Source of the DNA: Squalus acanthias
Lineage: Eukaryota
Length of the DNA: 64,000 nucleotides
Direction: 5' to 3'
Assembly: GCA_030390025.1 (NCBI GenBank)
Contig: CM059432.1
Location: 58,406,001 to 58,470,000 of the forward strand
The notes under the pieces are model-generated. The model searched no databases and was not told the origin of the DNA. It saw only the letters and a list, made by a program, of their open reading frames with translations. A program made the translations under genes and the position numbers. Of this stretch, positions 17,663 to 61,149 are shown piece by piece. Position 1 is the first letter of the stretch; the number at the start of each line of letters is the position of its first letter.

Positions 17663-17706
17663 TTCTTCCTCTTCTGTTTCTTCCTCTTCTGCGTCTTCCT
17701 TTCCTG

Positions 17707-17855
17707 TTTGTGGGACCTTTCTGTGCACAAATTGGCTGCCGCGTTTCCTACAATACAACAGTGACTCCACTTCAAAAGTACTTCATTGTCTGTAAAGCGC
17801 TTTGAGACGTCCAGTGGTTGCGAAAGGCGCTATATAAATGCAAGTGTTTCTTTTT
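17707..17855 (+). mobile_element. SINE 3' portion (DeuSINE/SacSINE-like)
   Basis: GTAAAGCGCTTTGAGACGTCC...GAAAGGCGCTATATAAATGCAAG. Confidence 0.7.
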
Positions 17856-32631: not shown

Positions 32632-35465
32632 CATAGAATTATAGAATCATAGAATGGTTACAGCACGGAAGAAGGCCATTCGGCCCGTCGAGCTGGCTCT
32701 CTGCAAGAGCATTTCAGCTAGTCCCACTCACCTGCCCTTTCCCCGTAGCCCTGCAAATTTTTTTCCGTCAGGTACTTTACCACTTTCCTTTTGAAAGCCA
32801 CGATTGAATCTTTCAGGCAGTGCATTTCAGATCCTAACCACTCGCTGCGTAAAAAAGTTTTTCCTCATGTCGCCATTGGTTCTTCTGTGTCCTCTGGTTC
32901 TCGACCCTTCCACCAATGGGAACAGTTTCTCTCTATCTACTCTGTCTAGACCCCTCATGATTTTGAACACCTCTATCAAATCTTCTCTCAACCTTCTCTG
33001 CTCTAAGGAGAACAACCCCAGCTTCTCCAGTCTATCCACGTAACTGAAGTTCCTCATCTCCGGAATCAATCTCGTAAATCTTTTCTGCATCCTCTCTAAG
33101 GCCTTCGCGTCTTTCCTAAAGTGCGGTGCCCAGAATTGGACACAATACTCCAGTTGAGGTCGAACCAGTGTTTTATAAAGGTTCATCATAACTTCCTTGC
33201 CTTTGTACTCTATGCTTCTATTTATAAAGCCCAGGATCTCGTATGTTTTTTTAACCGCTTTCTCAACCTGCCCTGCCACCTTCAATGATTTGTGCACATT
33301 TACCCCCAGGTCTCTCTGTTCATGCACCCCCTACAGGATTGTACCCTTTAGTTTATATTGCCTCTCCTCGTTCTTTCTACCAAAATGTATCACTTCGCAC
33401 TTTTCTGCATTAAATTTCATCTGCCACGTTTCCGCCCATTCCACCAGCCTGTCTATGTCCTCTTGAAGTCTATCACTATCCTCCTCACTGTTCACTATAC
33501 TTCCAAGTTTTGTGTCATCTGCAAATTTTGAAATTGTGCCCTATACACCCAAGTCTAAATCATTAATATATATCAAGAAAAGCAGTGGTCCTAGAACCGA
33601 CCCCTGGGGAACCACACTGTGTACCTTCCTCCAGTCCGATAAACAACCGTTCACCACTACTCTCTGTTTCCTGTCACTTAGCCAATTTGCTGCCACTGTC
33701 CCTTTTATTCCATGGGCTTCAAATTTGCTGGCAAGCCTATTATGTAGCATTTTAATTAGCGCACAGTGACTATTAATTTTGACCTGAATTATCGTTTCTA
33801 AACACTTCCCCACTACCAAGGTTAAACTGCCTGGCCTGTAGTTGCTGAGTTTATGTTTACACCCTTTTTTGAACAAGGGTGTACCATTTGCAATTCTTCA
33901 GTCCTCTGGCACCAGCCCCGTATCCAAGGAGGATTAGAAGATTATGGCTAGTACCTCTGCAATTTCCACCTTTACTTCCCTCAGCATCCTAGGATGCATC
34001 CCTTCCGGTCCTGGTGACTTATCTATGTTAAGTACAGCCAGCCTTTCTAGTACCTCCTCTTTATCAGTTTTTAGCCCACCCGGTATCTCAACTATCTCCT
34101 CTTTCACTATGACCTTGGCAGCATCTTCTTCCTTGGTAAAGACAGATGCAAAATATCCATTTAGTACCTCAGCCATGTCCTCTGCCTCCATGCGTAGGTC
34201 TCCTTTTTGGTCCCTAATCAGCCCCACCTCTCCTCTTAGTACCCATTTACAATTTATATGCCTATAGAAGACTTTTGGATTACCTTTTATTTTAGCTGCC
34301 AATCTATTCTCATACTCTCTCTTTGCTCGTCTTATTTCCTTTTTCACTTCCCTTCTGAACTTTCTATATTCAGCCTGGTTCGCATGTGTATTCTCAATCT
34401 GACATCTGTCATACGCCCCCTTTTCCTGCTTCATCTTACTCTCTATCTCTTTCATCATCCAGGGAGCTCTGGTGTTAGTTGCCCTACCTTTCTTCCTAGT
34501 GGGAATGTACCTCGACTCTACCTGAACCATCTCCTCTTTAAAGGCAGCCAATTGTTCAATTACAGTTTTGCCTGCCAATCTTTGATTCCAATTTACCCGG
34601 GCCAGATCCATTCTCAACCCACTGAAATTGGCCTTCCTCCAATTAAATATTTTTACTCTAGATTGCTCCCTGTCCTTTTCCATAGCTAATCTAAACCTTA
34701 TGATACTGTGACCACTGTTCCATAAATATCCACCTTCTGATATTTGCTCCACTTGACCCACCTCATTCCCCAGAACCAGATCCACCAATACCTCCTTCCT
34801 TCTTGGACTGGAAATGTACTGATGAAGAAAGTTCCCCTGAACACACTTCAGAAATTCTTCCCCCTCTCTGCCCTTTACACTATTACTATCCCAGTCTATA
34901 TTAGGATAGTTGAAGTCCCCCATTATCACTACTCTATAGTTCTTGCATCTCTCGTTAATTTCCCTGAAAATTTGCTCCTCTATATCCTTCCCACTAGTTG
35001 GCAGCCTATAGAATACACCTTGTAGTGTAATGGCACCTCTATTGTTTCTCAACTCTAACCAAATAGATTCTGTCCTTGACCCCTCCAGGACATCCTCTCT
35101 CTCCAGCACTGTAATATTCTCCTTAACCAATACTGCCACCCCACCTCCTTTCTTTCCTTCCCTATCTTTCCTGAACACCTTATATCCAGGAATATTTAAA
35201 ACCCAATCCAGCCCTTTTTTGAGCCAGGTCTCCGTTATCACCACGACATCATATTCCCATGTGTCTATTTGCGCCTGCAGCTCACCGACCTTATTTACCA
35301 CACTTCGTGCATTCACATACATGCTCTGCAAACCTATCTTAGACCTTCTTGCATTCTCTCTTAGTCTGACCCCACCTAATACCGTACTATTTCTTACTCT
35401 AGTGCTATGTGTCTCTCCCAATCCTTTATGCACCTTGTTTCTCCTTGCTAATGCTACATCCTGCT
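32632..35465 (-). mobile_element. CR1 LINE, nearly complete ORF2 (APE endonuclease + RT) with deletions and frameshifts
   Basis: YVNARSVVNK, ITETWL, GDFNYP, RT fragments and tail repeats at 32632-32655. Confidence 0.93.
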
Positions 35466-36570
35466 GCCCACAGGAGGTGTTGATGGTGTCCATAAAGAGC
35501 TCAGTAACTTGTAGCTTTGGGGATATTGAATAAAAAATCATAGTGTGGCAAAATCTTAATTTTCTTGTATTTCCTTGCCTTTTTTTTGCCTGATCTACAT
35601 CTTAAATTGATAGAGACTAGCCATTGGGCCAGTGATGAATGTAATAAGTGTATGTATCCCCCTGATTCCAGAAATATTGGCTTTCTGTATTGAGAATAAT
35701 TTTTTAAATGATAATAGTTGCCAATCTCTTTGCTAACTCAAACATCCTTCAGCATTTTTATCAACACAAACACAGAGATTTCACCTTTTGCTTTTTTTCC
35801 TGTTCTTTATCAATTTATAATGTTTGTTAAACATCTGAACTTTAGCCTGTATAAATTATTTTCTTGGTCCTCCTTCCTGTCTTAATTTATGAGCAATATT
35901 AGCAGGCCAGGAAACCTAGCTTCTGACATATATTTTACACTTCGCTAATCATGCACATTACCCTGCCATGAAGCTGAGTCCTTCTGTACAGAGAGTTCCT
36001 CATTATAACTTTATTAAAATTCATTGTCTGCAATGTGACAGTGAAAATCAGGCTAGACCAGCTGGCGTTGGCGTCAATAACTGTTAATGGATTCTAACAC
36101 TTGCATGTCTGCCTGCATCTAATGGTTCGCTTTACTGTCAGTCAATAGCTTTGGATTTATGCCAAATCTAGGGCAATTCAGACTTAATTTAATCTGCAAC
36201 TTTAATGGAGCTTTGAATAATACAGTACTCACATTGTACACTTATTTGTTTACTCGTGTAACATCGTCAGCAATCACGTTGCATAAATGGACAGTTGGTT
36301 TAGCTGTTTCAGTGAAGTGTTTCGTTCATAGAATTTTAAATTACATTAGTGTGTTAAGGTCATTGTACGTGTAAATTGAAATCAAAACTGATTACTACAG
36401 TTTGACTTATCTCACTACCGAATGTTTACAAGTGGCTAGTGTCAAGAGAAACAAGTCACAATTTCAAAAGGTACAAGAATTTTTTTCAGTATGAGGGTAG
36501 TCAGAGGAGAGGGGAGATTTCAAAAGGATACAAACAGGCCAAAAGCTGAGGATCAACATAAAATAGTTGA

Positions 36571-38140: not shown

Positions 38141-39504
38141 TGTAGAATTCGCAATATATCGCGATTTTATAAATAAGGAGAAAACACATAGTTTCGTTCA
38201 AACAGCTTTATTTCAGCAGAATGCTGTCAGGTTTTCAAAGTGGACACAAGCAGCCTGTAAAATGGCCGCCGAGCATCGTGGCAGAAGCTTCCAGAATACA
38301 GTGGGCAGACAAGATGGCGTTCGAATAAACATTTCAGTATCAGATTGGTTAATACGCAGCAAACACTGATAAAGACAGGATGCAACCTGTCTGCATTCGA
38401 CACAATAGCAAAGATATAAGTGCTGGAATCATTTTCCATGCACAAGTAAGGACCATTGTAATGGGCAATCGAAGGCCCATCCAGACACAGCAATACACAT
38501 CAGTATTCGAGAAGGCCCCAAACCCAGTCAGGGAGACTCCTAGCCGGCTCGACAATGGGGAAAACATTAACGGCTACTTGGCCAGTTTAAGGTGCTACCG
38601 AAACCCATTAAAGGAAAGAATCGCCCCATGCTGGGAGTTTTGTGCACCAGCATTTCACAAAGGACAAACATTAAGATTTGAGCGGGAGATAAGGGAACAC
38701 AGCACTATAACTATAGTGAACAAATGTCCATCAAGGGCTTATTCTCTGGATTCGACTTATATCTCTGCTGACTCTTGACTCGGGCTGGACTCTTGACTGA
38801 TTGATCTCGCTGATGACTGCTGAACTTTTATTCTCCTATTCTGATCCTCGGGTATCGCTCTGCTGGACGAGCAGCCTTCTGTTTTTCTCTGGACTCTGTT
38901 GACTACGAGACGAGACGAGAAGAAGAGGAGAAGAATCCACGTACCGCCACGGTCAGTAAACCCCGACCGCGCCCGAAAATACAAGAAAGAACTGCAGCGA
39001 AACGAGCCGAGTGCCTTACTTTAAAATTCTCCGAGTTATCACGAGTGGTGAGCATGAGTCTCGATCCTACATATCTAGATTAGTGTAGGTATTAATAGGG
39101 GAGGGTGGTTTTAAGTTTTAAGGATAACTGTAATGTGTGCCCCCATCTATGATGTGTCGTTCGTTCCTCGTTTCCCTGAAATTAGTTACATAACTGCGTG
39201 TAAGATTGTACTGTCATTAATCTGTGCTTATGACATGTATTTCGTAATCTTAAATAATATGCAATAAAGATTTTCCATTTCGTACCATTCAACCGGGTCT
39301 ACCTGAGTTTTCTCTCCATTACTGCTCTCGCATCTAAGTCCAGTGTCAGAACCGTAAGGGCGAGTGGGTCGAACCACTCACAGGTGTCTAGTGCTCCCAG
39401 ACTGGCTGGAGACCAGAACAGGCAACAAGGCCTAACCTCGCACTAGCATCCAGGCTGCACAGAGCCACACGAATCTCACAGGCTGAGAGACGAAAACCCT
39501 TACA
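38141..39504 (+). repeat. 5' LTR (AATAAA at 39263)
   Basis: Direct repeat of 45524-46887. Confidence 0.97.
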
Positions 39505-39508
39505 GAAA

Positions 39509-41317
39509 ATGGCGACCGCGGCAGGACACTGGCAGCGAGAGGGTAGTGTGTTAGACTTTGGTGTGAATGTACGAAATGTTATGCAGGAAAAGATAGCAGA
39601 TTATGTGTTCGGAAAGGTAAATCTAACTAAGAAATGGATAAGTGACTTGTTAGCGGATAAGTGTCCACTAGAGGCAGCCGAGAGGTGGACAGATAGTAAG
39701 GAACATAAAAAGACAGTCGAGAAAGCAGTCTGGTTAATGTGTTACAAAAGGCAGGTCCAGATTTCAAACCAGGTCATTACAGCGCAAACAGCTCGGATCA
39801 GGCATTTAGAGGAGGAAATGGATGAGAAGGTCTCTGGAGGGGAGTTGCTCATTAGGAATTTAAGTGCGCTGCACCGAGAACGCCAGGAAATCACCAGTCA
39901 CCACAAAGCAAAAATAGATTACCTCGAGTGTCAGGTCACTGAGGCAAAGTTAAGTGAGGGCAGACTAAAGGAACGATGTGCCCGCCAAGCTGCCCAAATA
40001 AGAACCCAGGAAGAGAGCTTAACGGGGGTTAGGGCGGCATATAAGATGGCCCTTGAGGATAAATTTCAGGGGGCCGATCATAGCGCCTGCCAACAGGAGA
40101 TAGAGCACCTCAATAGGGCCGTGAACAAAGCGCACGGCATGGTGTGCCTTATCAGTCCGTCAGCACACCAGCCGCTAGTAAATGAGGAGTTTCAGAAATC
40201 CCCACCCAATAAAGCAAAGGAAGTATTAGCCACTACGCCCTCCGCGCCACCCAGCTATTCGGAAACCTGGGTAAGGGAGGAAGTAGTAGAAGAAACAGAA
40301 GAGCCCACTGAGGAAGAAGTGGAAAAGGGACCGTTGTGTCCAGTTACGGGTATAAAAAGGGGCCCAAACAGAAACGGTGGGGAGGAACCAGGGGTTCTCC
40401 TCAACCAGCTTGTGTTGCCTCACAGCTCACACCAGCTGAGAGTTATGATAAATCACGTACGGAAGCTGACCGAGTCAGACGACCCTTCCGTACACTTTAG
40501 AGAAGTTGAGCAAACCGCAGCCATTAACGGCTGCGATGATGGGGAAACAGCAAAAATGCTGTTATTCTCATTGGGTAGTTCGATCCTTCAGTGTCTCTCG
40601 GACGAGAGCAAGAAGGGAACCAAGACCTATGAGGCATTAAGAAATGAGGTCCTAGAAGTATTGGGGACGGACGATGAAGGTCCGTTTGTTAGAGTGGGAC
40701 AGACAGTGCAGATGGAGGGAGAACCCCCGAAGGTTTTCGCCGACAGGCTGTGGCCAGTATATCAGCGCAGCTGTCCAGGTGTGCCAGAGCGCGACGCTGT
40801 GGAAGGCATCGGTTTAACTCATTGGCTCAGGTGTATAGTAGCCAACAGTTTGCCAGCCGTCAGAGAGCAGGCAAAAGCGTGGTTTGATCCCACTGACCCC
40901 AACATTACGGAGGAGTCGGTCTTAAATCGACTCACGGTAGGATACCGTAATATCAGGGGTATGGGAACACGTCCCCTTAAGGGAAAAGTACATGAGGTAC
41001 GACCCGCAGCCCCGGCTCAAAAGGAGTGGCATCAGGAGGGTAACCGCGCCCCGCAGGCAAGTAATGCTTGTTACGGGTGTGGGAGGACAGGGCACTGGCG
41101 CAAGAACTGCAGGAACCCTTGGAAGGATTCCAGGGATAAAAATCCCGCAGCCCGAGCCCAGATGCCTGTCTCTGTTAGGGAAGCTAGTGCACCCACCCCT
41201 CCCGACGACCTCGAAACAGTGTTGGGAGCCATGCGCAACTTCATGAGTGCGCATGGAAAAGTGGCGGTTGCTACCGGCCCCGTAGGTGCCACAGGCCCGT
41301 CTAACAATACCCAATGA
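39509..41317 (+). CDS. gag: Gag-like protein (N-terminal coiled coil, capsid-like region, CCHC zinc knuckle), 602 aa
   Basis: CYGCGRTGHWRKNC knuckle (41069-41110), MHR-like QMEGEPPKVFADRL, and position directly after the LTR/PBS. Confidence 0.9.
   Translation: MATAAGHWQREGSVLDFGVNVRNVMQEKIADYVFGKVNLTKKWISDLLADKCPLEAAERWTDSKEHKKTVEKAVWLMCYKRQVQISNQVITAQTARIRHLEEEMDEKVSGGELLIRNLSALHRERQEITSHHKAKIDYLECQVTEAKLSEGRLKERCARQAAQIRTQEESLTGVRAAYKMALEDKFQGADHSACQQEIEHLNRAVNKAHGMVCLISPSAHQPLVNEEFQKSPPNKAKEVLATTPSAPPSYSETWVREEVVEETEEPTEEEVEKGPLCPVTGIKRGPNRNGGEEPGVLLNQLVLPHSSHQLRVMINHVRKLTESDDPSVHFREVEQTAAINGCDDGETAKMLLFSLGSSILQCLSDESKKGTKTYEALRNEVLEVLGTDDEGPFVRVGQTVQMEGEPPKVFADRLWPVYQRSCPGVPERDAVEGIGLTHWLRCIVANSLPAVREQAKAWFDPTDPNITEESVLNRLTVGYRNIRGMGTRPLKGKVHEVRPAAPAQKEWHQEGNRAPQASNACYGCGRTGHWRKNCRNPWKDSRDKNPAARAQMPVSVREASAPTPPDDLETVLGAMRNFMSAHGKVAVATGPVGATGPSNNTQ
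39510..39527 (+). promoter_or_regulatory. Primer binding site, complementary to tRNA-Arg(TCG) 3' end
   Basis: TGGCGACCGCGGCAGGAC is the reverse complement of GTCCTGCCGCGGTCG+CCA, the vertebrate tRNA-Arg-TCG 3' end as I recall it. It lies 5 nt after the LTR. Confidence 0.85.
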
Positions 41318-42424
41318 CTAGAGCCCACGCAGCCTGCCTACCTGTGTCCTTTTAAAAGACACGCACAGGAGGGGGTCTCCTGTGAGGAGGCCAGGTTAAA
41401 AGAGCAGGCCTTGCGGGAGGAGAACGCCCGCTTAATAGGGAAAATAGATGGGCTAGAAGGGCAGCTTAGAGAGCAGGCCCTGCGGGAGGAGAACGCCCGC
41501 TTAATGGGAAAGTTAGACGTGCTCAGGCTAGAAGGGCAGCTTAGAGAAATAAAAGCAGCCTACCAGGTAGCCAGAAGCAGGGATTTAAACCAGTGCAAAC
41601 TGTACAAGCCAGGTGCACAAGGGAAAACCACAGGGGCAAACCCTGCGAGTGGGGACTCGCAGCCCCAGGTAGGACCACAAGGCACACAGGCAGGCAGAGC
41701 AGCTTGCATCAGGGAAGGAGGCATCCTGGAAAATTGTGAAGCATTTTTGTGGGGTTGGGAGTCAGATGAGGGAGAGTTCCAGGAACTCGAGTCAGATGAG
41801 GATAGTGATGAGGACGAGTGGGAATCGGAGGACACAAGGGTCGCCCCCGATTCAGGTATAGGGAGGACAGGGGCTGCAGATAGAGATCCACACAGGGTGG
41901 ACACCCAGGCTGAAGGTCCCGAACACAGGAGGGAGGAGCTAGGGGAGGCGGAGCCAGCCACTGTGGGACCACAGGGCGGGACGGCGGAAACCTCAGAGCC
42001 CGAGCCGCCCGCCTTGAACGTCCTGCCCTCGAGGGAGGTAGGGACTGCGAGTGGAGGTTCGCCTGCTGGGCCGAGCAGGGCGGTGCCACAAGCTGCAGGT
42101 CCCGAGGTCAGGGAGGCGGAGTCAGGGGAGACGGAGCCAGCGACTGTGGTGGGACCACAGGTCGTCCCGGTGGAAGTCTCGGAACCCGGTCCGTTGGTCC
42201 TGGGATTCCTGCCCCCGACAACTCCTCGTAGGTCAGGTCGGGCACCCCAGCCCAGGAAGATGTGGTCATGTCCCCAGACTGCCCCAAGGCGCAGGCTCAA
42301 GGTTAAGGCAGCCCAGGAAGGGCCCAGTCCCATCGCAGCAGCAACAGGCTGCGGCAGATCAAAGGAAGGGGTCAGTGCCCTCCCACCGTCGGGAAGAGCT
42401 CGCAGCAGCCTTCTCAGAATTTAA
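41318..42424 (+). CDS. 368 aa ORF in frame with gag after TGA-CTAG; coiled-coil repeat plus acidic/Pro-rich region; no PR/RT/RH/IN motifs
   Basis: The frame is open from 41318 to TAA at 42422-42424, in the same frame as gag. Confidence 0.65.
   Translation, partial: LEPTQPAYLCPFKRHAQEGVSCEEARLKEQALREENARLIGKIDGLEGQLREQALREENARLMGKLDVLRLEGQLREIKAAYQVARSRDLNQCKLYKPGAQGKTTGANPASGDSQPQVGPQGTQAGRAACIREGGILENCEAFLWGWESDEGEFQELESDEDSDEDEWESEDTRVAPDSGIGRTGAADRDPHRVDTQAEGPEHRREELGEAEPATVGPQGGTAETSEPEPPALNVLPSREVGTASGGSPAGPSRAVPQAAGPEVREAESGETEPATVVGPQVVPVEVSEPGPLVLGFLPPTTPRRSGRAPQPRKMWSCPQTAPRRRLKVKAAQEGPSPIAAATGCGRSKEGVSALPPSGRARSSLLRI
41399..41548 (+). repeat. In-frame tandem duplication (~69/75 nt) encoding EQALREENARL...LEGQLR twice
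   Basis: Direct reading. Confidence 0.9.
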
Positions 42425-42724
42425 AGGGGCCGCCCTGGGAACGGGCGGCGCTGTACAGTAATAAGTTTAGGATAAGTTTCTAAGTTTATAGTTTAAGGTT
42501 AAGAATAAGTTTATAGTTTTAAATCAGGTTAAGTTTGTAGTTTAATTTTAACAGAAAATGGTAAAATGATGGGAGCTTTAGAGATAGGTTTAGTTAAGGT
42601 TTATCCAGCGAACATTGAAGTTTACGTGAGGCGAGGTCAGGGGACCCGCTCACCCTTCACAAAAGCCAGAGACTCTTGCGAGGCTGGCTACCTCATTCTA
42701 TCTGATCACAGGAACCAAGGAAGG

Positions 42725-45076
42725 ATGGAACGAATTCTAGTATTGCTCGCGGCAATCGGATGTGGATTGGCCTATCGAGGCCGTACCAAGGATGTCGTGG
42801 TGTTTGGATGCTCCGGGGACACGGCCCCCATCGCGGTGGATGGGACCGGAAGACGGGAGGCTGAGGAGACCACCACCTATTTCCACAAGGGAAGGTGGCC
42901 AGGATGGCTGGGAACGAACTCAACGGAGTATTCCAGCACATCAGGGTTTGCCTACCAAGAGACTTCTTTACTGTGCCCCAAAGTAAGGATCATCGCACCC
43001 AGGATCAGCGTCACCGTCGGCAAACGGATTTGTTTGACTTGTAGTGGGAATGTCCCATTGAGCCGATGGTGGTGGCTGCGAAAGCTGAGCAAAAACATGA
43101 GGAACTCTTCGGTCGAGTGGGAACGACTGGGTAATAATACCCATCGGACAATTACGGGGACAAACGGACAAGTGAGAGTCTGTTGGGACAAATGGTGGGT
43201 ACCGGATGAGGGAATTTATGTATGTATGTGGGGGTCAAAGTACGCTTGCCCCAAAGGCATCTCCATATTTTTCATTCATCAATGGCAGGATAACGGACAG
43301 GGGATGAGGTGGGATGCGAGCACCAGGGGGTGCGGAGCCCCATACTCTTCGATCCCGGTAAATACCACTGAGCTCATTACGCGCCCACGCAAAGCCCCGC
43401 CCACGATTCCGGTGGTTCTAGCTGAAGAGGAAGGGTGCCCTAAAACTAGTAAGGGACCCGGGAATGGTTTGGTACTGGTCCCCACAGACCAGATACTATT
43501 TCAGGGGGTACATTACGCGGTGGCCTCGGTGATTTTAAATCTCACCGAGGTGCGGTTACCAGAGTGGTGCCCCAAAAAGACGGAACAGTTATATCAGGTC
43601 CTGTTGACCAAGATGTTCAGACAATTTTACGAATTCGATTTCGCGGAAATTGATAAAACAAGTCTGTACACCGCACCACATGAAGTTTTGGATCAAGTAG
43701 GGAGGCAAAGAAGGGGTGTAGTGAACGACGTGTTCACTGCTTTTAACACGGGTACATCTGTGGTCAACGCTCTAGACAGTGTGGAGCTGCAGACCCAGAT
43801 TAATGGTTTAAAGACGCAATTAAAAGACATTCTAACAGATGAGAATAAAGTGGTTGGGTCAGGTTTACACGAGGACCAAGCCATGACTCTCCATTTAAAA
43901 GAAATTATAGCAGAGTTAGAGAAACATGCAAAGACGGTAAATGCCCTGATTAGGGAAGATCGGAATGCATCCGATCAAGCTGCGCAGAACGAGGTGTGCG
44001 TGATTTACGGGGCGTGGTTACTGGGCGAGGGCCGCAGTAATTTGGAGGATTTAAAACAAGGTTTGGTCCCGTCCTGGATAAGTAACAAACACCTGCGGGC
44101 GCTCCACCCTTTTCAGAACGCATTAAGCCCGTGCCAGCTCAGGCTAGCTTCAGAAGCTTACCCAGTCCCCGTGGACTGCGGACGATCAAACCATACTATC
44201 ATGGGTATAGTATTACGTATGCCGGTTTTGGGCGACACAGCAAAGCCCGCCCCGGTGTATCGGGTAGAGAACATTGGTGTCATTCAGGGGGGAGCCCACA
44301 TTCGCTATGCAGCGGTTCCACCCTACGTCATCCGCTGGGAGCAAACGATGACAGGTACAGATCTCTCTGGTTGTCGTGGCAGGGGAGCACACATAATACT
44401 GTGTCCCCAGCACTTGAATGCCTTTTTAACACCACAGTGCGGGTTCAGAACGGCTGGCGCCAAGTCCATGAATTGCACCATGGAGGCAATGGCACAAGAT
44501 CATGTGCCTCCGCAGGTAGCATACATCGGGGGTGGAACATATTGTGTTACCACTGCAGCGCAACACTACCAGCATGGAAACCGTAGCCGGTGTCCGGTGA
44601 GTGACAGCAGTTTCTGTTTCAAACCCAGGGCGGAAGTTCAAGTAGCACAACGGCGAATTGTCCCAATCCCTGAACCATCCACTGTTCATCTAACAGTAAA
44701 AGAGAATTTCACCGACTTGCAGCGATTCGTCGCGCATTTCGGATACCTCATTCCCCCTCTCCCTGAACACCTCACCAAGCTTTTAAAAGCCGTCGCGGTG
44801 TCACAGAAACATTTTTACACATTAGAACAGAAAACTGTCGAAATAGGAACAGACATTCTGGATATAGTAATTCCACCGTGGTGGAATCTGTTCACCAATA
44901 TTGAAGTGCCTTCATGGATCAGAATAGCCTCCCACATTTTAGTCGTATGCCAAGTTTTTATTGTAGTGTACCTATTGATCGTACATTGTAAAAGAGGCAA
45001 ACGCCTCACCAAGCATGAAAACACAGGAGAGTGGCGAGAACGTTACGTGCGCGTGCACGATGAAAGCACCGTGTAA
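42725..45076 (+). CDS. env: Envelope / class I fusion-type glycoprotein, 783 aa from the signal-peptide ATG (ORF open from 42566)
   Basis: Signal peptide MERILVLLAAIGCGLA, Ig-like segment, furin site RQRR (43703-43714) followed by a heptad region, Cys-rich region, TM HILVVCQVFIVVYLLIV and a basic tail. Confidence 0.88.
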   Translation: MERILVLLAAIGCGLAYRGRTKDVVVFGCSGDTAPIAVDGTGRREAEETTTYFHKGRWPGWLGTNSTEYSSTSGFAYQETSLLCPKVRIIAPRISVTVGKRICLTCSGNVPLSRWWWLRKLSKNMRNSSVEWERLGNNTHRTITGTNGQVRVCWDKWWVPDEGIYVCMWGSKYACPKGISIFFIHQWQDNGQGMRWDASTRGCGAPYSSIPVNTTELITRPRKAPPTIPVVLAEEEGCPKTSKGPGNGLVLVPTDQILFQGVHYAVASVILNLTEVRLPEWCPKKTEQLYQVLLTKMFRQFYEFDFAEIDKTSLYTAPHEVLDQVGRQRRGVVNDVFTAFNTGTSVVNALDSVELQTQINGLKTQLKDILTDENKVVGSGLHEDQAMTLHLKEIIAELEKHAKTVNALIREDRNASDQAAQNEVCVIYGAWLLGEGRSNLEDLKQGLVPSWISNKHLRALHPFQNALSPCQLRLASEAYPVPVDCGRSNHTIMGIVLRMPVLGDTAKPAPVYRVENIGVIQGGAHIRYAAVPPYVIRWEQTMTGTDLSGCRGRGAHIILCPQHLNAFLTPQCGFRTAGAKSMNCTMEAMAQDHVPPQVAYIGGGTYCVTTAAQHYQHGNRSRCPVSDSSFCFKPRAEVQVAQRRIVPIPEPSTVHLTVKENFTDLQRFVAHFGYLIPPLPEHLTKLLKAVAVSQKHFYTLEQKTVEIGTDILDIVIPPWWNLFTNIEVPSWIRIASHILVVCQVFIVVYLLIVHCKRGKRLTKHENTGEWRERYVRVHDESTV

Positions 45077-45523: not shown

Positions 45524-46887
45524 TGTAGAATTCGCAATATATCGCGATTTTATAAATAAGGAGAAAACACATAGTTTCGTTCAAACAGCTTTATTTCAGC
45601 AGAATGCTGTCAGGTTTTCAAAGTGGACACAAGCAGCCTGTAAAATGGCCGCCGAGCATCGTGGCAGAAGCTTCCAGAATACAGTGGGCAGACAAGATGG
45701 CGTTCGAATAAACATTTCAGTATCAGATTGGTTAATACGCAGCAAACACTGATAAAGACAGGATGCAACCTGTCTGCATTCGACACAATAGCAAAGATAT
45801 AAGTGCTGGAATCATTTTCCATGCACAAGTAAGGACCATTGTAATGGGCAATCGAAGGCCCATCCAGACACAGCAATACACATCAGTATTCGAGAAGGCC
45901 CCAAACCCAGTCAGGGAGACTCCTAGCCGGCTCGACAATGGGGAAAACATTAACGGCTACTTGGCCAGTTTAAGGTGCTACCGAAACCCATTAAAGGAAA
46001 GAATCGCCCCATGCTGGGAGTTTTGTGCACTAGCATTTCACAAAGGACAAACATTAAGATTTGAGCGGGAGATAAGGGAACACAGCACTATAACTATAGT
46101 GAACAAATGTCCATCAAGGGCTTATTCTCTGGATTCGACTTATATCTCTGCTGACTTTTGACTCGGGCTGGACTCTTGACTGATTGATCTCGCTGATGAC
46201 TGCTGAACTTTTATTCTCCTATTCTGATCCTCGGGTATCGCTCTGCTGGACGAGCAGCCTTCTGTTTTTCTCTGGACTCTGTTGACTACGAGACGAGACG
46301 AGAAGAAGAGGAGAAGAATCCACGTACCGCCACGGTCAGTAAACCCCGACCGCGCCCGAAAATACAAGAAAGAACTGCAGCGAAACGAGCCGAGTGCCTT
46401 ACTTTAAAATTCTCCGAGTTATCACGAGTGGTGAGCATGAGTCTCGATCCTACATATCTAGATTAGTGTAGGTATTAATAGGGGAGGGTGGTTTTAAGTT
46501 TTAAGGATAACTGTAATGTGTGCCCCCATCTATGATGTGTCGTTCGTTCCTCGTTTCCCTGAAATTAGTTACATAACTGCGTGTAAGATTGTACTGTCAT
46601 TAATCTGTGCTTATGACATGTATTTCGTAATCTTAAATAATATGCAATAAAGATTTTCCATTTCGTACCATTCAACCGGGTCTACCTGAGTTTTCTCTCC
46701 ATTACTGCTCTCGCATCTAAGTCCAGTGTCAGAACCGTAAGGGCGAGTGGGTCGAACCACTCACAGGTGTCTAGTGCTCCCAGACTGGCTGGAGACCAGA
46801 ACAGGCAACAAGGCCTAACCTCGCACTAGCATCCAGGCTGCACAGAGCCACACGAATCTCACAGGCTGAGAGACGAAAACCCTTACA
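45524..46887 (+). repeat. 3' LTR, preceded by short purine tract AACAGGAGG
   Basis: Direct repeat of 38141-39504. Confidence 0.97.
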
Positions 46888-47075
46888 CCAGTGCGCTCAG
46901 CCGTTTCTTGATGTCACATGGAGTGAATCAAATTGGCTGAAGACTGGCTTCTGTGATGGTGGGGACCTCAGGAGGAGGCCGATATGGATCATCCACTCGG
47001 CACTTCTGGCTGAAGATGGTTGCAAACGCTTCAGCCTTGTCTTTTGCACTCAAGTGCTGGGCTCCACCATCATTG
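46888..47075 (-). mobile_element. Continuation of the LINE interrupted by the LTR element
   Basis: Removing the element restores GCTGTATCCAGTGCGCTCAGCCGTTTC, a continuous LINE reading frame. Confidence 0.85.
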
Positions 47076-47329
47076 ATACGCTAAATGATTGCTTGCTCCA
47101 AGTATTAACTCGAGAAGACATGGGCAATATGCCCGCCATAATCAGTATTCATCCAAGTAGAACTACCGACTGCAACATAAAAAGGTGGTGATCCTACTCA
47201 GACTAAACTAGCTCTAAACAAATTAATTTCCAGGAATGTGTACAATTTATCTCTAAGAGAGAGAAAAAGGGTCATAATTGTGAGATGGTAACACCATTAT
47301 GAGAGAGTCAATAAACACTGGGAAAAGAG

Positions 47330-47490
47330 TCAACTTCTATTTATATAGCAGATTTCACATCCTCAGGATGTTGCAAAGAACATCACAGGTAATAAATTAC
47401 TTTTGGAAGTATAGTCACTACTGTAATGTAAGCCAACACTACAGCTAACTGGCACACACAAAGGTTTCACACCAGATAATCTGTTTTATT
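47330..47490 (-). mobile_element. Decayed SINE 3' tail
   Basis: TATTTATATAGCAGATTTCACATCCTCAGGATG resembles 14140-14235. Confidence 0.55.
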
Positions 47491-47494
47491 AATC

Positions 47495-47930
47495 ATCCAG
47501 GTGAATATCCACTTCCCACGCAGCACTCAATGTTTATTTTAAGGCAATCCTCTATACCTGATGTATTTGAAGGAGAAGGCAGACTTGAAGTATGCGTCCT
47601 AGCTGACAAGGCTACCCTCTGCATATCAGCAAATAACACCCGATAGAGCAAGATCCATGCATCTGTGGAGGGTGATAAACAGCATGTCAGATGCTGGACT
47701 AAATCAGGGGGCAAATTGTAGTGCAGCTCCATCAGAGTCCCCAAGAATATCGTTGTCTGCTGCATGCTTCACCATTTTGCTATCCAAAGAGGCCTAAATA
47801 TGGAGGTGGTGGAGGAGGAGGTCTATCTGCAGCCAAACCAGAAAATGATATTGACAATAATTTGGAGGATGTCACCAGCGAAACAGCTTTGTAGCTAGGA
47901 AGGGTTGTATGCCAGGCTCTCATGGATTAC
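47495..47930 (+). pseudogene. Old Harbinger transposase C-terminal fragment
   Basis: FILRQSSIPDVFEG, LADK and IVVCCMLH motifs. Confidence 0.7.
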
Positions 47931-47949
47931 CTTCACTGTAATACCTTCT

Positions 47950-49442
47950 GGATTAGAAATTCATTATAGCCCAGGAATGGGCGGTATCTTTAGAAAAGTT
48001 TGAGAATTGGCACCAGGCGCTAATGCTTTAGACTGCACGCAAAATTCATTATCACTGCTCAAATACATGATTGGGCGCTAAATCAAGTCTTAAAGGCTTA
48101 GCTCATTGGCGTTACACTGAAAGGGTGGACCAATATCGGGTGCAGTCTAATCTCAACTCTTCATTGCCACAGGTTTTTCCCAGTACTTAAAGGGGAGGTT
48201 CATTGATACTGCAGCACCTCATTGTCAGCATTGTTGGCTGTGCAGCTGCCTCAGCAAGGAGAAGCACAACAAGGAGAAGGAGCCGGAGGACTGAAGCAGG
48301 TGTGCTCATGGCAGATCCACCTCAGTCGAGTGGTAGCCTTTGCATTACGGAAGATCTCAGGATTGTTGTGCAGTGCCCGCAAAGCCACATGGGTGCAGTC
48401 AATGGCATCCTGCACCATGGGGAATCCCGCTATCCTGACAAAGCCACATGCACACTCGCCCTGCTTCTTTCTGGTGATGGGGAAGGAAATGTATTCCCTT
48501 CTCCTTCTGTACATAGCATCTGTGACCTGGTGGATGCAGCGATGGATGGCGAACTGCGAGATGTTAGTTATGTCTCCTGTTGCAGACTGGAAGGATCTGC
48601 TGGCGAAGAAATTGAGGGCGGCGGTGACCTTGACTGCTACTGTGAGAGCCGTGTCGCCCTGGTCTGAGGCTGGAGGTCTGGTTGCAGGAGGTGGCAGAGT
48701 TCTGTGACCACCTCCTTGGTGAAGCGGAGCCTTCTAATCCACTGCTCCTCGCTTAATTGGAGGTAGGAGACGTGCTCTCGGAATACCCTCGGAGGGTAAG
48801 TCCTCCTGTTGAGAGCCCTAATGGCCCTCCTCCTCCTTCTGGCCACATCTTGTAATCTTTCTCGCTGCCTCCGCTCCCTCCGCAGTAGATCCTGGAGGGC
48901 GAGGTCGACTGCCAGTACAGCCCCCATTAATGTAACCAAGTGTAGCAGTTTGAATTAAAAAAAAATAAATGTAGCTACTTTTTAGTTGCCACAACACTCC
49001 TCATACAAAATAACCTTGAAATTATTGAATTAAACTGTTGCACTATGTGAAACTGACAAGAAACCACTGAAACTCCATTAATCTGACAGCTGCGAGTCGT
49101 TACTGATGATCCCTTTAAATATCATCCCTGTAGCTGGCTTTCTGCTGCTTCTTGCCAACTCTCCCTGTCACTGTTTACTCCAGGCGCTAAGGTAGGTGAC
49201 GACAATCAATTTCACAGATTGGGCACTCACCGAGTGTTGCACACTCACTGACATCACAATCCAACTGGCATTGAGGTTCCCAGCGATAACTGTTAGCGGT
49301 GGCTCTGCGGTGGGGGGGGGGGGGGGGCAGGATTTGATGAGCAGCATTGGATTTGCCTCGCCCCGGTGATAATACTCTACAAACCTGTTAGTGCCATCTG
49401 TTGGTGCTAACAGGAGGCGCTAAGCTACCGAATTTTCCCCCC
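47950..49442 (-). mobile_element. Internally deleted Harbinger retaining the transposase N-terminal half (~48320-48930)
   Basis: RRTYPPRVFRE, RLRFTKEVVTELCHLLQ, AIDCTHVAL. TIR-like ends GGATTAGAAATT / AATTTTCCCCCC. Confidence 0.8.
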
Positions 49443-49449
49443 AAGGATT

Positions 49450-50595
49450 TCGGCATCAGGTCCAGGCAATTTGTTGGTTTTTAGTCTCATTAGTTTCTCA
49501 AGTACTTCTTCTCAACTGATATTAATTAATTCAAGTTCCTCACTCTTGTTAGTCCCTTGGTTCCCCACTATTTTTGCTATGCTTTTTGTGTCTTCTATTG
49601 TGAAGACAGATACAAAATATTTGTTTAAAGTCTCTGCCAGTTCCTTATTCCCCATTATATTTCACCTGTCTCAGCCTCTAAGGGACCAATGCTTACTTTT
49701 GCTATTCTCTTCCTTTTTGCCTACTTGTAGAAGTTCTTACAATCTGTTTTTATATTTCTTGCTAGTTAACTCTCATTCTATTTTTTCCCTTTTTAGCAAT
49801 TTTTTGGCCATCCTTTGCTGGTTTCTAAAGCTCTCCCAATCCTCAGGCTTACTACTATTCTTTGCAACATTATAAGCCTCTTCTTTTAATCTAATATTAC
49901 CCTTAACTTTTTTAGTTAGCCACGGATGGATCACTTTTTCCATAAAGTTTTTATTTCTCAATGGAATGTATATTCATTGAGAATTTTGGAATATTTCTTT
50001 AAATGTCTGCCACTGCTTATCTACTTTAATTTAATTTCCCAATCTACCTTAGCCAACTTGCCCCTCATACCTATGCAATTGGCTTTATTTAAGTTTAACA
50101 CTCTTGTTTTCACTCTCAGACTCAATGTGAAATTCTATCATATTATGATTACTCTTCCCCAGAGGATCCTTTACTAATTACTGTCTCAATTCACAACACA
50201 AGATCTAAAATAGCCTGTTCCCTGATTGGTTCTATGATGTATTGGTCTAGGAAACTGTCTCAAATGCATTCCATGAACTCGTCCTCCAGACTACCTTTGC
50301 CAAGTTGGCTTGCCCAGTCTATATGAAGATTAAAGTCCCCCATGTTGATTGTATTACCTTTGTTACAAACTCCTATTATTTGTTGATTAATATTCTGTCC
50401 AACGGTACAGCTACTGTTTGAGGGCCTATAAACTACTCCCACCAGTGATTTCTGCCCCTTATTATTTCTTATCTCCACCCATACTGATTATACTTCCTGA
50501 TCTTCTGAGCCAAGATCCTTTTTCACTAATGTCCTTATGCCATCCTTTATTATCAGGGCTAACCCCCTCCTTTTCCATTCTGCCTGTCTTTTCGA
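49450..50595 (-). mobile_element. Decayed CR1 fragment (endonuclease/linker region)
   Basis: VGVVYRP, MGDFNLHIDW and PWLTKKVK motifs. Confidence 0.85.
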
Positions 50596-51290
50596 CAGTT
50601 GTTGGACGTGCGAGCTGATAACGGTGCAGCGAGGGCAGTAGGGCATCTGGGACCTTGGTGCACAACAGGACAAACAGTCTATCTCCTTAACCAATGAGAT
50701 TTAAGAATTGAAAAATAAACAGAGGAAGGACTGAGCAGGAGGGTGAATTAGAGTAGGTGAATTCAATGTCAAATCAGGTGCAGAAAGAGAAATAATGGCC
50801 CGAATTTTCCCAGTCCTGAGCGTGCGGGTTTGGGGGCGGGTCAGCAGTAAAAATTGCCAAAAACCCCAGCGCGTCGGGAACCTGCCATCATCCCACCGAC
50901 TTCCGCATTTTACTCGGGCGCGTTTCTCAGCATGCCGTGGACCCGCTCAGCAGAGGCTGGTGACTTCATTCAAGTACTTAAATGCTTGTTGAGATACCCT
51001 TAAGAGGATTTTTAACAGGAGCTTTTGGCTTTAACTGCTGGAGCACGGGATTCACGCACCTCGGGAACCTTGCCTGTTAAGGGAAGCGGAAGCGCAGTGG
51101 CCAATGTTAATTGACAGCTGGGAAGAACACATAAATGCTCTCACATTACACCTGGTTACTTGGCTAATGGAAAGGCTCTTGTTTACTCGATTCTGTGCTG
51201 AGATTTAGCTGTCAGGAGTTTGCAGGTAATTTTTGCAACCTCGGAAGCCACTCTCACCACATTGCCAGTCACTATCAGAACATTAATACA

Positions 51291-51800
51291 ATAGCAAAAT
51301 ACTGCAGATGCTGGAAATCTGAAATAACAACAGAAAATGCTGGAAACACTCAGCAGGCCAGGCAGCATCCGTGGAGAGAGAAACGGAGTTAACGTTTCAG
51401 GTCTGTGACCCTTCGTCAGAACTGGAAAAAGTTAGGGATGTAACAGGTTTTAAGCAGGTTCAGAGGCAGGGAAAGGGGGGGGGGGAGGGGAGGAAAGAAC
51501 TAAAGGGATGGTCTGTGCTAGGTTGGAAGGCAGGAGAGATTAAATGTTGCAAATGGGGATGGCAGAATCATCAACAGTTGCCGCCCGAAAAAATGGGGGC
51601 TGGGGTTATAGTCTGAAATTGTTGAACTCAATGTTGAGTCCAGAAGGCTGTAAAGTGCCTAATCAAAAGATGAAGTGCTGTTCCTCGAGCTTACGTTAAG
51701 CTTCATTGGAACAGTGTAAGAGGCCAAGAACAGAGAGGTCAGAGTGGGAGTGGAGCGGAGAATTAAAGTGACAAGCGACCGGAGGCTCGGTGTCACCCTT
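51291..51800 (-). mobile_element. 5'-truncated Penelope copy (end of GIY-YIG ORF + pLTR)
   Basis: Homologous to 5109-5705. Confidence 0.9.
51387..51423 (-). ncRNA. Minimal hammerhead ribozyme (CUGACGA variant)
   Basis: AGUU-CUGACGA-A-GGGUC-aca-GACCU-GAAAC-GUU-AACU. Confidence 0.8.
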
Positions 51801-52705
51801 ACTATCAGAACATTGATTGATTGGGCCTCTGATCTCCACTTTACCTGCCATCTGAGGAGTGATGTGCAGGAGTAGGCTTGGGAAGGCAGAGTGATGGAGT
51901 TGGGGTGACAGGCACATCAAAATGTAGGTGAGTGTGGCATTGCACTCACCTTTCCTGACCTCATGAGATCATTGAATCTCTTGCGGCACTGGATCCACAT
52001 ACGCATCACCACATCCCTGCTGCTGACCTCCTCTGTGATCTCTAGCCATGCCCTCTTAGTGTCTTTTGCTGCTCTTTTTCTGCCATCCACAGGAAAGAGG
52101 ACCTCCCTGCGTGCTCTTACTCCCTGGACCAGCCCTTCCAGGGATGCATCTGGGAATCTTGAGGCTGCCCTGTCTTTGTGTCTCCATGAAACACAGAATT
52201 GTCAAAGTTATGCAGCAATTTGTATCTCTGGAAATCACCTTGAACACTCCTACATCAACCTTCAAATGAGATGTGTGCAAGGCTGCTTTAAATATCCACG
52301 CTGGAAACGAGTCATCGATGATGTCATCAGACCCGCTCCATTTAATTGAGCTGGGAAATGGCATGACTGGTTTAATTAGGGCCATTAAGTAAAATTCACA
52401 GTGCAGAACGCGCTGTTCACATCTTCGGGTTCCTGCCCCACTATACGGCCCGCACGCACGCATCCCGACTCCAAGGTAAAGATTCTGGCCAAAGAGTGGG
52501 AAAGAAAGATTGGATTAAGAGAAAGAGAAAAAAGAGACAGAAAAGAAATTAAGAATTTTTTTTTTAATTTGACATTTTTTAAATCTCCCAACAACAATTC
52601 ACAACCTGAAGGAATGAGACTCCACACTTATAATTGTTTACTTTCTGAGCAAGAGAGGTTGTTCAGCAGGCATTAACAACTATCGTGTTGTTAAAGGGTG
52701 CTTTA

Positions 52706-53290
52706 GAGTCAAGTCATAGAGTTTATACAGCACAGGAAGAGGCCCTTAGGCCCATCGTGTCCGCGCTGGCCATCAAGCCCTGTCTATTCTAATCCCATTT
52801 TCCAGCACTTGGTCCGTAGTCTTGTATACTATGGCATTTCAAGTGCTCATCTAAATGCTTCTTGAATGTTGTGAGGGTTCCTGCCTCTGCCACCCTTTCA
52901 GGCAGTGAGTTCCAGATTCCAACCACCCTCTGGGTGAAAAAGATTTTCCTCAAATCCCCTCTAAACCTCCTGCCCCTTACCTTGAAACTATGCCCCCTGG
53001 TTATTGACCCCTCTACTAAGGGGAAAAGTTCCTTTCTATCTACCCTATCTATGCCCCTCATAATTTTGTACACCTCAATCAGGTCCCCCCTCAGCCTTCT
53101 CTGCTCTAAGGAAAACAACCCCAGCCTGTCCAGTCTCTCTTCATAGCTGAAGCACTGCAGCCCAGGTAACATCCTGGTGAAACTCCTCTGCACTCTCTCC
53201 AATGCAATCACATCCTTCCTATAGTGTGGCGCCCAGAACTGCACACAGTATTCCAGCTGTGGCCTAACTAGCGTTTTGTACAGCTCCATC
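52706..53290 (-). mobile_element. CR1 3' fragment inserted in a MITE
   Basis: ORF 52789-53292 LYKTLVRPQLEYC...FFTQRVV. Confidence 0.9.
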
Positions 53291-55094
53291 ATAATTACTA
53301 GACTTAACTTTCTGTGGCAAGTTTAATGGGCAATTAATGTGCAAACGCAGCAACTTCATGAAAATCACAGGTTGGTTAATCGCGAGATGCCATTTTTGCA
53401 TCGTTGGCTTTGTTAGCAGGAACACAGCAGGCTGAGATGTGGCTGTCACTTCCAACAACTATGGAATGACTGTTCTTCAGTGAAGTAGTGTCCAGTTTAC
53501 AGCTGAAAGAAAACAGTGATCGATAGAAAATAATGTCAAACAGGATCAGTTCCCATCTGTGGGTGCATGTGTGTCTTACTCTTTCTTACTTTTTTACAGG
53601 GGCAGTCATTTATTCAAACTTCCACATTTCTCTCCATTTTCAAATGTCCATGTCTCATTCTCTTCTACACCACCTTAACTTTTATTTTAAAAAAGCCCTA
53701 TCTTGCCTTCCATAATATTGGAGCATATTAAAGTAATATCATTAAAGAACATATTATGATTAAAGATTTTTCTTTTCATCAGCGAAGCAGCCCAGTTAAC
53801 AGCCCGAAGGTGATTGAATGCTACACACTGTGTCCTTTCAGTAACCTGCTAAGATTCTGGTAACACTAGACCTCCTTGGGTTGTACATTGCAAGGACCTT
53901 CCATGTATTTCGATTTTGTTCAGGACTGTGGTAACTGACTGATGCTACTTGCTTTCTGCTACCTTGTCCCATTTCTTCTACAAGGAACTTCTGAGGAGAT
54001 GCAACAGTCCCATAAAGTGCATGTCTCTCCTCCCCGACTCAGAGAATTGGGCAATGTAATGTGATGGAAGGCAAGGTTAGTGATCGGACGTTGGGAGCAG
54101 TAGGGCTTCCAGTATGTGACCAATAATCCTGCCTTCCTGCACTCTGTAATGCTCAATTCATCAACAAATGTTCTCAGTAAACATGTAGCTCAACTGTTTA
54201 AATACTTGTTAATTGCAGTGTGTGGCTGATTAAGACAATTAGTGCTTCTCCCTTTTAATTACGTGGCCTGCTATGTGGAAGATATAGGGGTGAATTCATA
54301 ATCTAATGCTCCCAGCACAGAGCTTTGCTCAACGGGAGCTCATATCGGGAATTTGGTGCAGAGGTAAGCTCACCTGATTCACTGCCACATGATTTACCAG
54401 GAACATCAAATCGTAAAATTTACCTGTGGACTTCAATTTCACCCACAGACCAAATGCAGAAAAATCATTAGGTTGACAATGTAATCCCAGTGTAGAAGCA
54501 CATTGTTTGCTTGCTATACCTGCAGGTCTCACAGCTGAGCTCACTCCATAATGTGAGGTCAGCTAACTTAAGCATGGAGTACAAGACATGCTCCACCAAG
54601 GGTCACAGGGCAGGCTAGCGAGAGCCAGGAACTGTTAAAGGGTTGCTCTTGCCCTTAAAACATTTTCTTATATTTTTGGACCCCACTACAGCCTCCACAA
54701 CAAATACTTAATCCTTGGACTGAGTGTTGGAGGTTGTGGAGCTGGTCATCCTGCAATGAGGGATGGCTAAATGTGGAGGATAGGACCATACAGCAAGGTA
54801 GAAAATCAGTTTTGCTGCACTGCTTGCTTGAGGCGCTCAATTCAAACAGGTGTTAAGCATCTAGAGTGCTGATCAGGTGCATTATGAGGCATTCCTTTGT
54901 TTGCATTGAAATTGGGGCATTAATGAGCCTTTCATGCAATATATAAGTGGCGACAGTGCTTGAGACCTGCGCTATGGGCACTGTGCACATCAGGCAATAA
55001 GTAGAGCTCAGGCCTCAACAACTGATAATATGAGGCATTCATGGCCGATGAACTGCAGCAACTGTGGGTGCCTTGGAACATATTATTGGCCTCA

Positions 55095-55738
55095 AATCAC
55101 AAACAGCTAGTGCACACATACAAAAAGTAACCAAAAAGGTTAATGGAATATTGGCCTTTATCTCGAAGGGGCTTGGAATTCAAAGGGGTGGACGTTATGC
55201 TACAGTTGTACAGTGCCTTGGTCAGACCCCATCTGGAGTACAATGTTCAGTTTTGGCACCACATCTCAGGAAGGATATATTGGCCTTAGAGGAAGTACAG
55301 TGCAGATTCACCAGGATGATACCAGGACTCAAATAGTTAAATTATGAGGACAGGTAGCATAAAGTATTCCCTTGAGTTTAGAAGGTTGAGAGGTGATCGA
55401 ATTGAGGTGTTTAAAATGATGAAAGGATTTGATAGAGTCGGTATAGAAAACGATTTCCCCTAGTGGAGCAATCCAAACAAGAGGGCATCATTTTAAAATT
55501 AGAGCTAGGCCAATCAGGACTGAAATCAGGAAGCAGTTTTTCACACAAGGGTAGTGGAAATCTGGAATTCTCTCCCCCAAAAGGCTGTGGATGCTCTGGG
55601 TCAATTGAAATTTTCAAGAGTGAGATCAACAGATTATTATTAGGTAAGGGTATGCATCAAAGGTGTGTAAATGGAGTTGAGGTACAGATGAGCCATGATC
55701 TAATGGAATGGTGGAACAGGCTCTAAGAGCTGACTATG
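55095..55738 (+). mobile_element. Decayed CR1 3' fragment
   Basis: KVNGILAFI and PHLRKDILALE motifs. Confidence 0.85.
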
Positions 55739-56301
55739 TCTGTTCACGTTGTCTTTCTGCAAGTTGTTTATTTTATTTACTGAAGATGTTGGGGTAAAAA
55801 TTCACTTGGTTGCGCCTCCCGTTAGCGCCTTAAGAGGGCGCTAATGGGGCATTAAGCCGCTAACGCCCGGGCGCAGCGATGTTTGAGCCGCTCGAGAACT
55901 TAACTTGAGATTGTGCGGCGGCGCTAAAACTTACCGCTGCGACCACCTGCGCGCGCAGATTGTGACGTCATTCCATGGTGCAACGCCCTTGGGGCGCCCC
56001 GGAGCGGAAATTGAGTGGCGCCCCCTGCCTTACCGCCTGGCGCTTCCAACGACCGGAAGACTGGAACGCTATCAATCGGTGTGGGGCTGGGGGGGGCGCT
56101 ATTTAAAGGGGGCCTCTTCCTGTCTTTTTCTGTGGTCGACATTTATGCACCACTCGTTCTGAGAGAGAGAGAGAGATTCGGAGAGAGAGAGAGAGAGACT
56201 TCTACATTGACTCAACGCTTTGTGAGGTAGTTTTGCCTATTCATCCTAACTTTGTTGCTACTTTAGTTGCTGTACCTCATGACTTTTCTGGCAAAGAGAA
56301 T

Positions 56302-57462: not shown

Positions 57463-57756
57463 GGCCCCTGCCATTGCTACAAACACTAATCAACCCAGCA
57501 CGCAACCCCTAAGCCGGCCAAGGCACCAATAATTCCAACCACCAGCCATGTATATTTTGAATACAGAAACTTATTTATTTTACAAACTCTGTGTGTGTCA
57601 ATTCCTCATGACAAACTCATAGAAATAAACACAAAAAAACAGTCAATAACATAACTGGTTCTCACAACCTGGAGATAATGTCCAAAACACTAAACAAAAG
57701 TTGGACCATGAACCTCGGCCTTTAATAAAAAAATGACCAGCATTTTGTCACACCTC

Positions 57757-61110: not shown

Positions 61111-61149
61111 GTTTACAGCTTCACTGGAAACACTCAACAGAGGAACTCT

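Follow-up and report, generated by a model that had tools for sequence, protein, structure and literature searches.

Pol-less endogenous retroviruses with a fused reading frame can be very successful, the closest described case being the non-autonomous mouse intracisternal A-particle (IAP) element 1-delta-1, in which enzyme genes were lost from the interior in frame and for which reports describe a fused frame that promotes mobility in cis (PMC6466679, PMC7411935; here and below, published systems are described as given in the covered parts of the cited sources). We analyzed a 64,000-nt stretch of Squalus acanthias DNA (the window; all positions are its 1-based coordinates) that carries a young, presumably helper-dependent long terminal repeat (LTR) element, an endogenous retrovirus without pol that has kept gag, env and an open frame, X, directly behind a UGA-CUAG gag stop. 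In this family the pattern resembles that of IAP: enzyme domains were lost, the frame was kept and the product was amplified beside autonomous siblings. In IAP 1-delta-1 parts of both gag and pol are gone and the fusion is made directly, whereas the window element has a whole gag, an env, a foreign gag filler and a fusion that would depend on readthrough. With these differences, the element would by analogy work like IAP 1-delta-1.

The stop context has its own precedents. The hexamer UGACUA marks type II readthrough, and on its own UGACUAG gives ~1.3% readthrough (PMC13517186). Sindbis virus, a type II case, has an extended stem-loop at +16 that spans 177 nt (PMC13517186), and here the same hexamer is followed by a predicted stem from ~+16 that spans ~200 nt; the present case differs in lying at a retroviral gag-pol junction and in having a structure that is predicted only. 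Gamma- and epsilonretroviruses also place an in-frame stop between nucleocapsid and protease, but theirs is UAG-G (type III), with a pseudoknot in murine leukaemia virus (MLV) (PMC13517186). UGAAGA, UGACGA and UGAAGU are the contexts that this review gives for three retroviruses of fish or frogs, and snakehead retrovirus appears there with UAGGGC, which differs from the UGACUAG found here; the covered parts of the review give no retroviral UGACUA (PMC13517186).

Lokiretroviruses (PMC7947760) and zebrafish BHIKHARI (bioRxiv 2024.03.25.586437) share with this family a coiled-coil Gag N-terminus, a tether plus RNase H, and pol-less derivatives, although Bik-2 of BHIKHARI is without env. At least 4 of 17 TGACTAG matches in the covered supplement of PMC7947760 look by eye like in-frame lokiretroviral gag-pol junctions, and the covered main text of that paper does not contain the words readthrough, read-through, frameshift or stop codon. 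The literature searched, with partial coverage, yielded no description of this family's readthrough junction.

The gag-pol junction and the origin of X

In the window element gag ends in CAA-TGA at 41315-41317, followed by CTAG, and the frame behind the stop stays open for 368 codons to a TAA at 42424, as an earlier sequence-only reading of this DNA had described. That reading placed no ATG near the start of X and gave a fusion of ~971 aa; the earliest Met in frame stands at codon 63, and a read-through product would have 602+1+368 = 971 aa. An open frame of this length has a chance of ~3e-6 at local base composition, and the remaining two frames across the region hold 17 and 14 stops. A scan for slippery sites returned one heptamer, out of phase. 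The features of this part of the element are as follows.

39509..41317, + strand: gag, 602 aa, with an N-terminal coiled-coil region, a presumed capsid region (by position) and a CCHC knuckle
41315..41321, + strand: UGA-CUAG, type II readthrough context, family gag-pol junction (putative)
41318..41350, + strand: pol codons 1-11, kept from the autonomous element, holding the 5' arm of the predicted stem
41328..41381, + strand: predicted local hairpin between the pol-derived 5' arm (41328-41347) and the 5' border of the captured gag piece (41363-41381)
41351..41582, + strand: the filler, a gag coiled-coil fragment captured from a related family, in which 23 codons are duplicated and a deletion has kept the frame
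41583..42424, + strand: Pol C-terminal tail, from the end of the integrase SH3-like domain onward, with acidic tract, Pro/Gly repeats and basic motif
42227..42265, + strand: RRS[SG]R-x-P-x-P[RK]-xx-W motif, also in the short Pol tail of a distant family

Siblings ~3.7 kb longer than the window element are present in its own genome (3.7 Gb), arranged gag, then protease, reverse transcriptase (RT), tether, RNase H and integrase, then env. Their Pol, of ~1500 aa, lies in frame behind TGACTAG and comprises these enzymes and an SH3-like domain. Among 70 loci, 30 of them best matches to a junction-containing query and 40 chosen on gag, we found the junction in 69, and it read TGACTAG in every one; 35 were X-type and 34 pol-type, with a frame that runs on into protease. 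Homology to the protease of human immunodeficiency virus covers pol codons 16-45 and so begins before the first in-frame Met, at codon 24, which means that the protease N-terminus needs translation from upstream. Because pol also stands in frame behind the same TGACTAG, the signal is, to judge from frame and homology, the family's inherited Gag-Pol readthrough-type junction, and the readthrough-type stop proposed earlier from the window alone finds its support in this protease frame.

The junction extends beyond the closest copies. A distant family in the same genome, ~30% identical in the N-terminal part of gag, also has TGA-CTAG in frame to protease. Exact junction matches number at least 976 X-type and at least 1412 pol-type copies, and a Gag homologue with 55% identity is annotated in a skate. 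Among contigs from four sequencing runs, single contigs that bridge stop and filler are present in those of organisms A, B and C (scored for presence only), so the X form seems not to be confined to this genome.

Comparison with the siblings revealed that X is no new gene. It is an in-frame chimera of pol codons 1-11, a captured gag piece and the Pol C-terminal tail, and together with a tail ratio of nonsynonymous to synonymous change (dN/dS) of 0.93 this speaks against the idea of a distinct novel frame. Codons 1-11 are the start of pol. Codons 89-368 correspond to Pol 1216-1495, the tail after the integrase SH3-like domain, at 88% identity, in agreement with the integrase-tail likeness that had been suspected, and the acidic tract, Pro/Gly repeats and PRRSGR motif ascribed to X are all present. 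A Pfam search found no enzyme domain left in the window element, matching the description of X as non-enzymatic.

Codons 12-88, the filler, match a gag coiled-coil profile at 30-31 bits, a score that none of 1000 shuffles and none of 1000 heptad-block shuffles reached (best 15 and 27.5), and this homology to gag coil regions supports the coiled coil read earlier from the translation. The nearest source found is the gag of another family (locus L252; tblastn 5e-13, 69% DNA identity), in an alignment that starts at the filler's first codons and contains a 30-nt in-frame gap. Copying from the element's own gag was rejected: own gag reaches only E 0.05-0.16 with no DNA match, and the other family's gag is closer. 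Pairwise BLAST of Gag against X gave no match, and a donor search by flank pattern returned X-type copies alone among the 20 of 21 matches inspected.

In frog and coelacanth relatives (P0007, P0008, P0009, P0011; Pol 43-45% identical) Pol stops directly behind the SH3-like motif, and in the distant family the tail is only 86 aa long, with the same acidic and basic motifs. By comparison with these relatives, Pol was extended within this lineage to give the 280-aa tail. The RRS[SG]R-x-P-x-P[RK]-xx-W motif, which 52/59 open X frames share with 24/30 Pol tails, spans from the distant family's 86-aa tail to the 280-aa tail.

Some single copies depart from the common layout. At L071, near 3300, an LTR end directly abuts the filler's first bases with no gag between them; L140 has a different in-frame filler-to-integrase junction and keeps the SH3-like domain; L163 has a sense codon in place of the gag stop; and L167 carries a gag deletion fused in frame to X.

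Predicted RNA structure 3' of the stop

We aligned 18 pol-bearing sequences from five lineages, hand-picked for diversity from 64, and numbered positions from the T of TGA as 1. When the 230 nt that begin at the stop were folded, two near copies and the distant family showed the same long-range pairs. In the alignment the stem consists of helices 16-20/213-217 and 27-31/199-203 and the pair 15/219. Across 17 distinct sequences, 98.4% of the stem cells are paired, compared with 22-51% when the pairing is slid by 1-3 columns, and RNAalifold recovered both helices independently. Covariation comprises one two-sided and two one-sided changes, and in six sequences synonymous third positions are invariant at 5/5 sites in the stem versus 18/75 elsewhere. 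We predict from these models that pol-bearing copies of five lineages have a common extended stem-loop 3' of the stop.

In X-type copies the 3' arm of this stem has gone together with pol, and the retained 5' arm is able to pair instead with the start of the filler. The resulting hairpin has a predicted energy of -28.3 kcal/mol in the majority type, with 0 of 5402 background windows as strong and a shuffle P of 0.023, compared with -5.3 kcal/mol for the corresponding segment of the donor-like family (L252). All six differences between filler edge and L252 at paired positions (6/6) improve pairing in the majority type. On the modeled folds, the captured piece thus appears to supply a substitute arm.

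Maintenance of the frame and competing explanations

To follow stop and frame among copies we took 70 X-type copies in chromosome order from a pattern search, the first 30 rows and 40 later rows, some of the later rows that were already included or were tandem copies being skipped. The gag stop reads TGACTAG in 63, TGACTGG in 4, TAACTAG in 1 and a sense codon in 1, and one copy lacks the junction through a gag deletion. X is open in 61/70 and gag in 52/70, the latter scored over a longer stretch (491 to ~600 codons), so that breaks are no more frequent in X than in gag (Fisher 0.085). Context and frame are therefore conserved among copies, and the frequent disruption of X beside intact gag that would have spoken against the sequence-only reading was not observed; as a whole, that reading is partly supported.

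The nine X breaks are all different, with none common to copies, although ~8.8 shared stops would be expected in X at the shared synonymous rate (Poisson 1.5e-4, a rough figure). Length classes of X are multiples of 3 in 19/25 cases, compared with 7/28 for the noncoding spacer behind X (49 copies each), and filler length classes common to at least two copies are in frame in 5/5. Events specific to X are likewise in frame: the 5' junction, an internal 30-nt deletion, the first duplication and three kinds of 3' junction. This set of filler events is the X-specific evidence for maintenance, and we regard it as moderate.

Little amino-acid constraint accompanies the open frame. From 59 X frames and 54 gag frames, using all variants, dN/dS was 0.93 for the tail, 0.66 for the filler (P 0.052) and 0.30-0.59 for gag, so that constraint on the tail is not detectable; for shared filler variants the ratio was 0.80 (18 N, 9 S). 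A between-group dN/dS on loci picked by filler similarity was set aside as biased, and the position-ordered copies were used instead. Of 40 loci, 30 allowed both LTRs to be compared, with identities of 97.8-100%, and all subfamilies look young. The four TGA-CTG-G copies (L124, L143, L150, L173) have a broken X in 4/4 cases versus 5/65 of the others (Fisher 1.5e-4, computed after the fact), which may reflect age or release from selection.

With frame and context kept and sequence largely free, the analogy with IAP 1-delta-1 suggests that the target of selection is probably readthrough translation in cis rather more than the sequence of X. Most ribosomes would stop at UGA and make Gag, and a few percent would read on to give a minor 971-aa Gag-X; we infer that this protein is made. 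Pol would have been replaced by a piece of another family's gag, leaving X as the in-frame remnant. Enzymes would come in trans from pol-bearing siblings, with which the element RNA would be co-packaged and recombined, and X would be kept open because translation past the stop favors the copying of the RNA that is translated. The selected cis property could be RNA stability against nonsense-mediated decay (NMD) or coupling to packaging; NMD can be inhibited by readthrough, depending on distance (PMC5360307).

Several observations weigh against this explanation. Readthrough would shorten the untranslated 3' part from ~5.5 to ~4.4 kb, which is modest for an NMD model. For the filler alone the expected number of shared stops is 1.4, and gains and losses of the 69-nt repeat are in frame by construction. 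An ascertainment-biased estimate puts filler dN/dS at 0.4-0.5, which would favor a role of the protein. All tail types occur in both X-type and pol-bearing copies, and 21/30 Pol tails are open; with tails exchanged in this way, a stop-free tail may reflect selection on Pol. As for the structures, the pol-type stem was chosen after folding and 8/11 of its pairs never vary. The hairpin of the window copy is weaker at -20.2 kcal/mol (1.3% of background windows; shuffle P 0.097), the 70 copies contain no two-sided change in it, and its 5' arm was partly fixed by the search pattern. L252 is a 70%-identical relative and not the donor itself, most differences from it are A to G, and the 230-nt fold of the window copy prefers other partners for the 5' arm, so the substitute hairpin is a lead and not proof.

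An unlikely explanation, but the one that best survives beside selection on cis translation, is that Gag-X or a cleaved X protein has a role of its own, for example a coiled coil with a chromatin-binding integrase tail that helps or competes in mixed particles. The filler ratio of 0.66 points this way, as do the 61/77 filler residues without a shared alternative and the persistence of RRS[SG]R..P[RK]..W in 52/59 open X frames and in the distant family's tail. We take this motif to resemble arginine-anchor chromatin-binding motifs, a likeness on which the literature searched yielded no direct paper. Disordered tails can function by composition at dN/dS near 1, which also counts for a protein role. 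Against these points stands the higher ratio of 0.80 among shared filler variants; low filler diversity fits recent spread (synonymous diversity per site is 0.14, against 0.39 for gag), copies differ in the number of filler repeats and in the filler's 3' junction, and the motif is explicable by exchange with Pol.

It is improbable that X is a passive, unselected relic with an inherited context and a frame that has escaped closure through chance and through steady recombination with copies that have pol. The near-neutral tail, its sharing with autonomous copies and the youth of all copies by LTR identity would fit. Such a relic would, however, have to pass through several X-specific events that were all in frame (5' junction, 30-nt deletion, first duplication, 3' junctions) and keep TGACTAG in 63/70 copies although gag differs by 10% on average between copies, and its filler edge is shifted towards pairing relative to the donor-family relative at 6/6 paired positions. 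It is very improbable that Pol and X are made, in the manner of foamy viruses, by splicing of the mRNA or from a start within it, with UGA-CUAG incidental. In favor of this, RT scores nearly the same against MLV and foamy RT (196 versus 190 bits), and a weak acceptor-like site lies ~40 nt after the stop in pol-bearing copies. Against it, no ATG behind this site is in frame, the first in-frame Met falls within the region of protease homology, the acceptor scan by the same rule found no such acceptor at the X junction, and the distant family has TGACTAG in frame. Selection on translation in cis is favored over all three by the retention of frame and context with a largely free sequence.

Element context, placement and implications

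The other parts of the element are as follows.

38141..39504, + strand: 5' LTR, 1364 bp, TG...CA, with the target-site duplication CCAG directly before it
39510..39527, + strand: primer-binding site, complementary to tRNA-Arg(UCG)
42533..45076, + strand: env open reading frame (stop to stop), with an RQRR furin-type site and a C-terminal hydrophobic stretch
45524..46887, + strand: 3' LTR, pairing with the 5' LTR

The two LTRs differ by 2 mismatches (99.85% identity), and CCAG stands on both flanks. A scan of primer sites gave tRNA-Arg tcg at 3/3 loci, and in the window the gag ATG is overlapped by the primer-binding site (39505-39527). Long tandem arrays with a period of ~1.6 kb on G000 contig C26 (L264, L265) match the tRNA-Arg(UCG) pattern, which has 424 matches genome-wide. 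Copies of the element itself occur in head-to-tail runs spaced 7.6-8.1 kb or 11.1 kb apart (G000 contigs C661, C3295 and others). The gag CCHC knuckle gives a zf-CCHC match at E 0.005, below the Pfam cut-off. Env, likely starting at the ATG at 42725 behind an acceptor-like site at 42711, has no match in Pfam, and its N-terminal part (42962-43243) gives a weak Ig-like match to junction adhesion molecule (JAM; E 0.41). Elsewhere in the window (1-38000 and 47000-64000) lie many dispersed repeats and long open reading frames, for example at 15889-17829, 33934-35601 and 61913-63973.

RT scored 196 bits against MLV, 190 against foamy virus and 136 against Ty3. In an RT tree, for which 37/70 RT rows were kept, the family split with 100/100 from PFG-type rows that we read as gypsy-like, and by these comparisons its RT is retroviral rather than Ty3/gypsy. 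The RT is LPQG-type, in contrast to the PFG-type lokiretroviral Pol in the covered supplement (PMC7947760), and lokiretrovirus membership is disfavored by this motif. The dual RNase H (tether plus RH) is present; it is common to other retroviruses and so not diagnostic. PF00523, the paramyxovirus F family to which lokiretroviral Env is likened, was not among the families listed (25 of 27) for 35 aligned sequences. Membership in the snakehead-retrovirus-related clade Huo would be marked by an RT that clusters with snakehead retrovirus (PMC6001957; see also PMC4422223, PMC10435555).

More tentatively, and as a joint proposal that we hold with some doubt, a fish-retrovirus lineage and some lokiretroviruses may make Gag-Pol by an alphavirus-type UGA-CUAG with an extended stem-loop, and the satellite form may have lost the 3' arm with pol and evolved a new arm in a captured gag fragment; Gag-X may then be a chromatin-anchored passenger. 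If this wider proposal is true, selection would have maintained readthrough even where the element no longer encodes any enzyme. If confirmed, the retroviral ways of making Pol would come to include type II readthrough with a long stem-loop. The question raised by pol-less fused frames has so far been studied mostly in mouse IAP 1-delta-1, and the ~1000 copies of this element, in several subfamilies, would then offer a natural experiment on why a pol-less element keeps ribosomes reading past gag.

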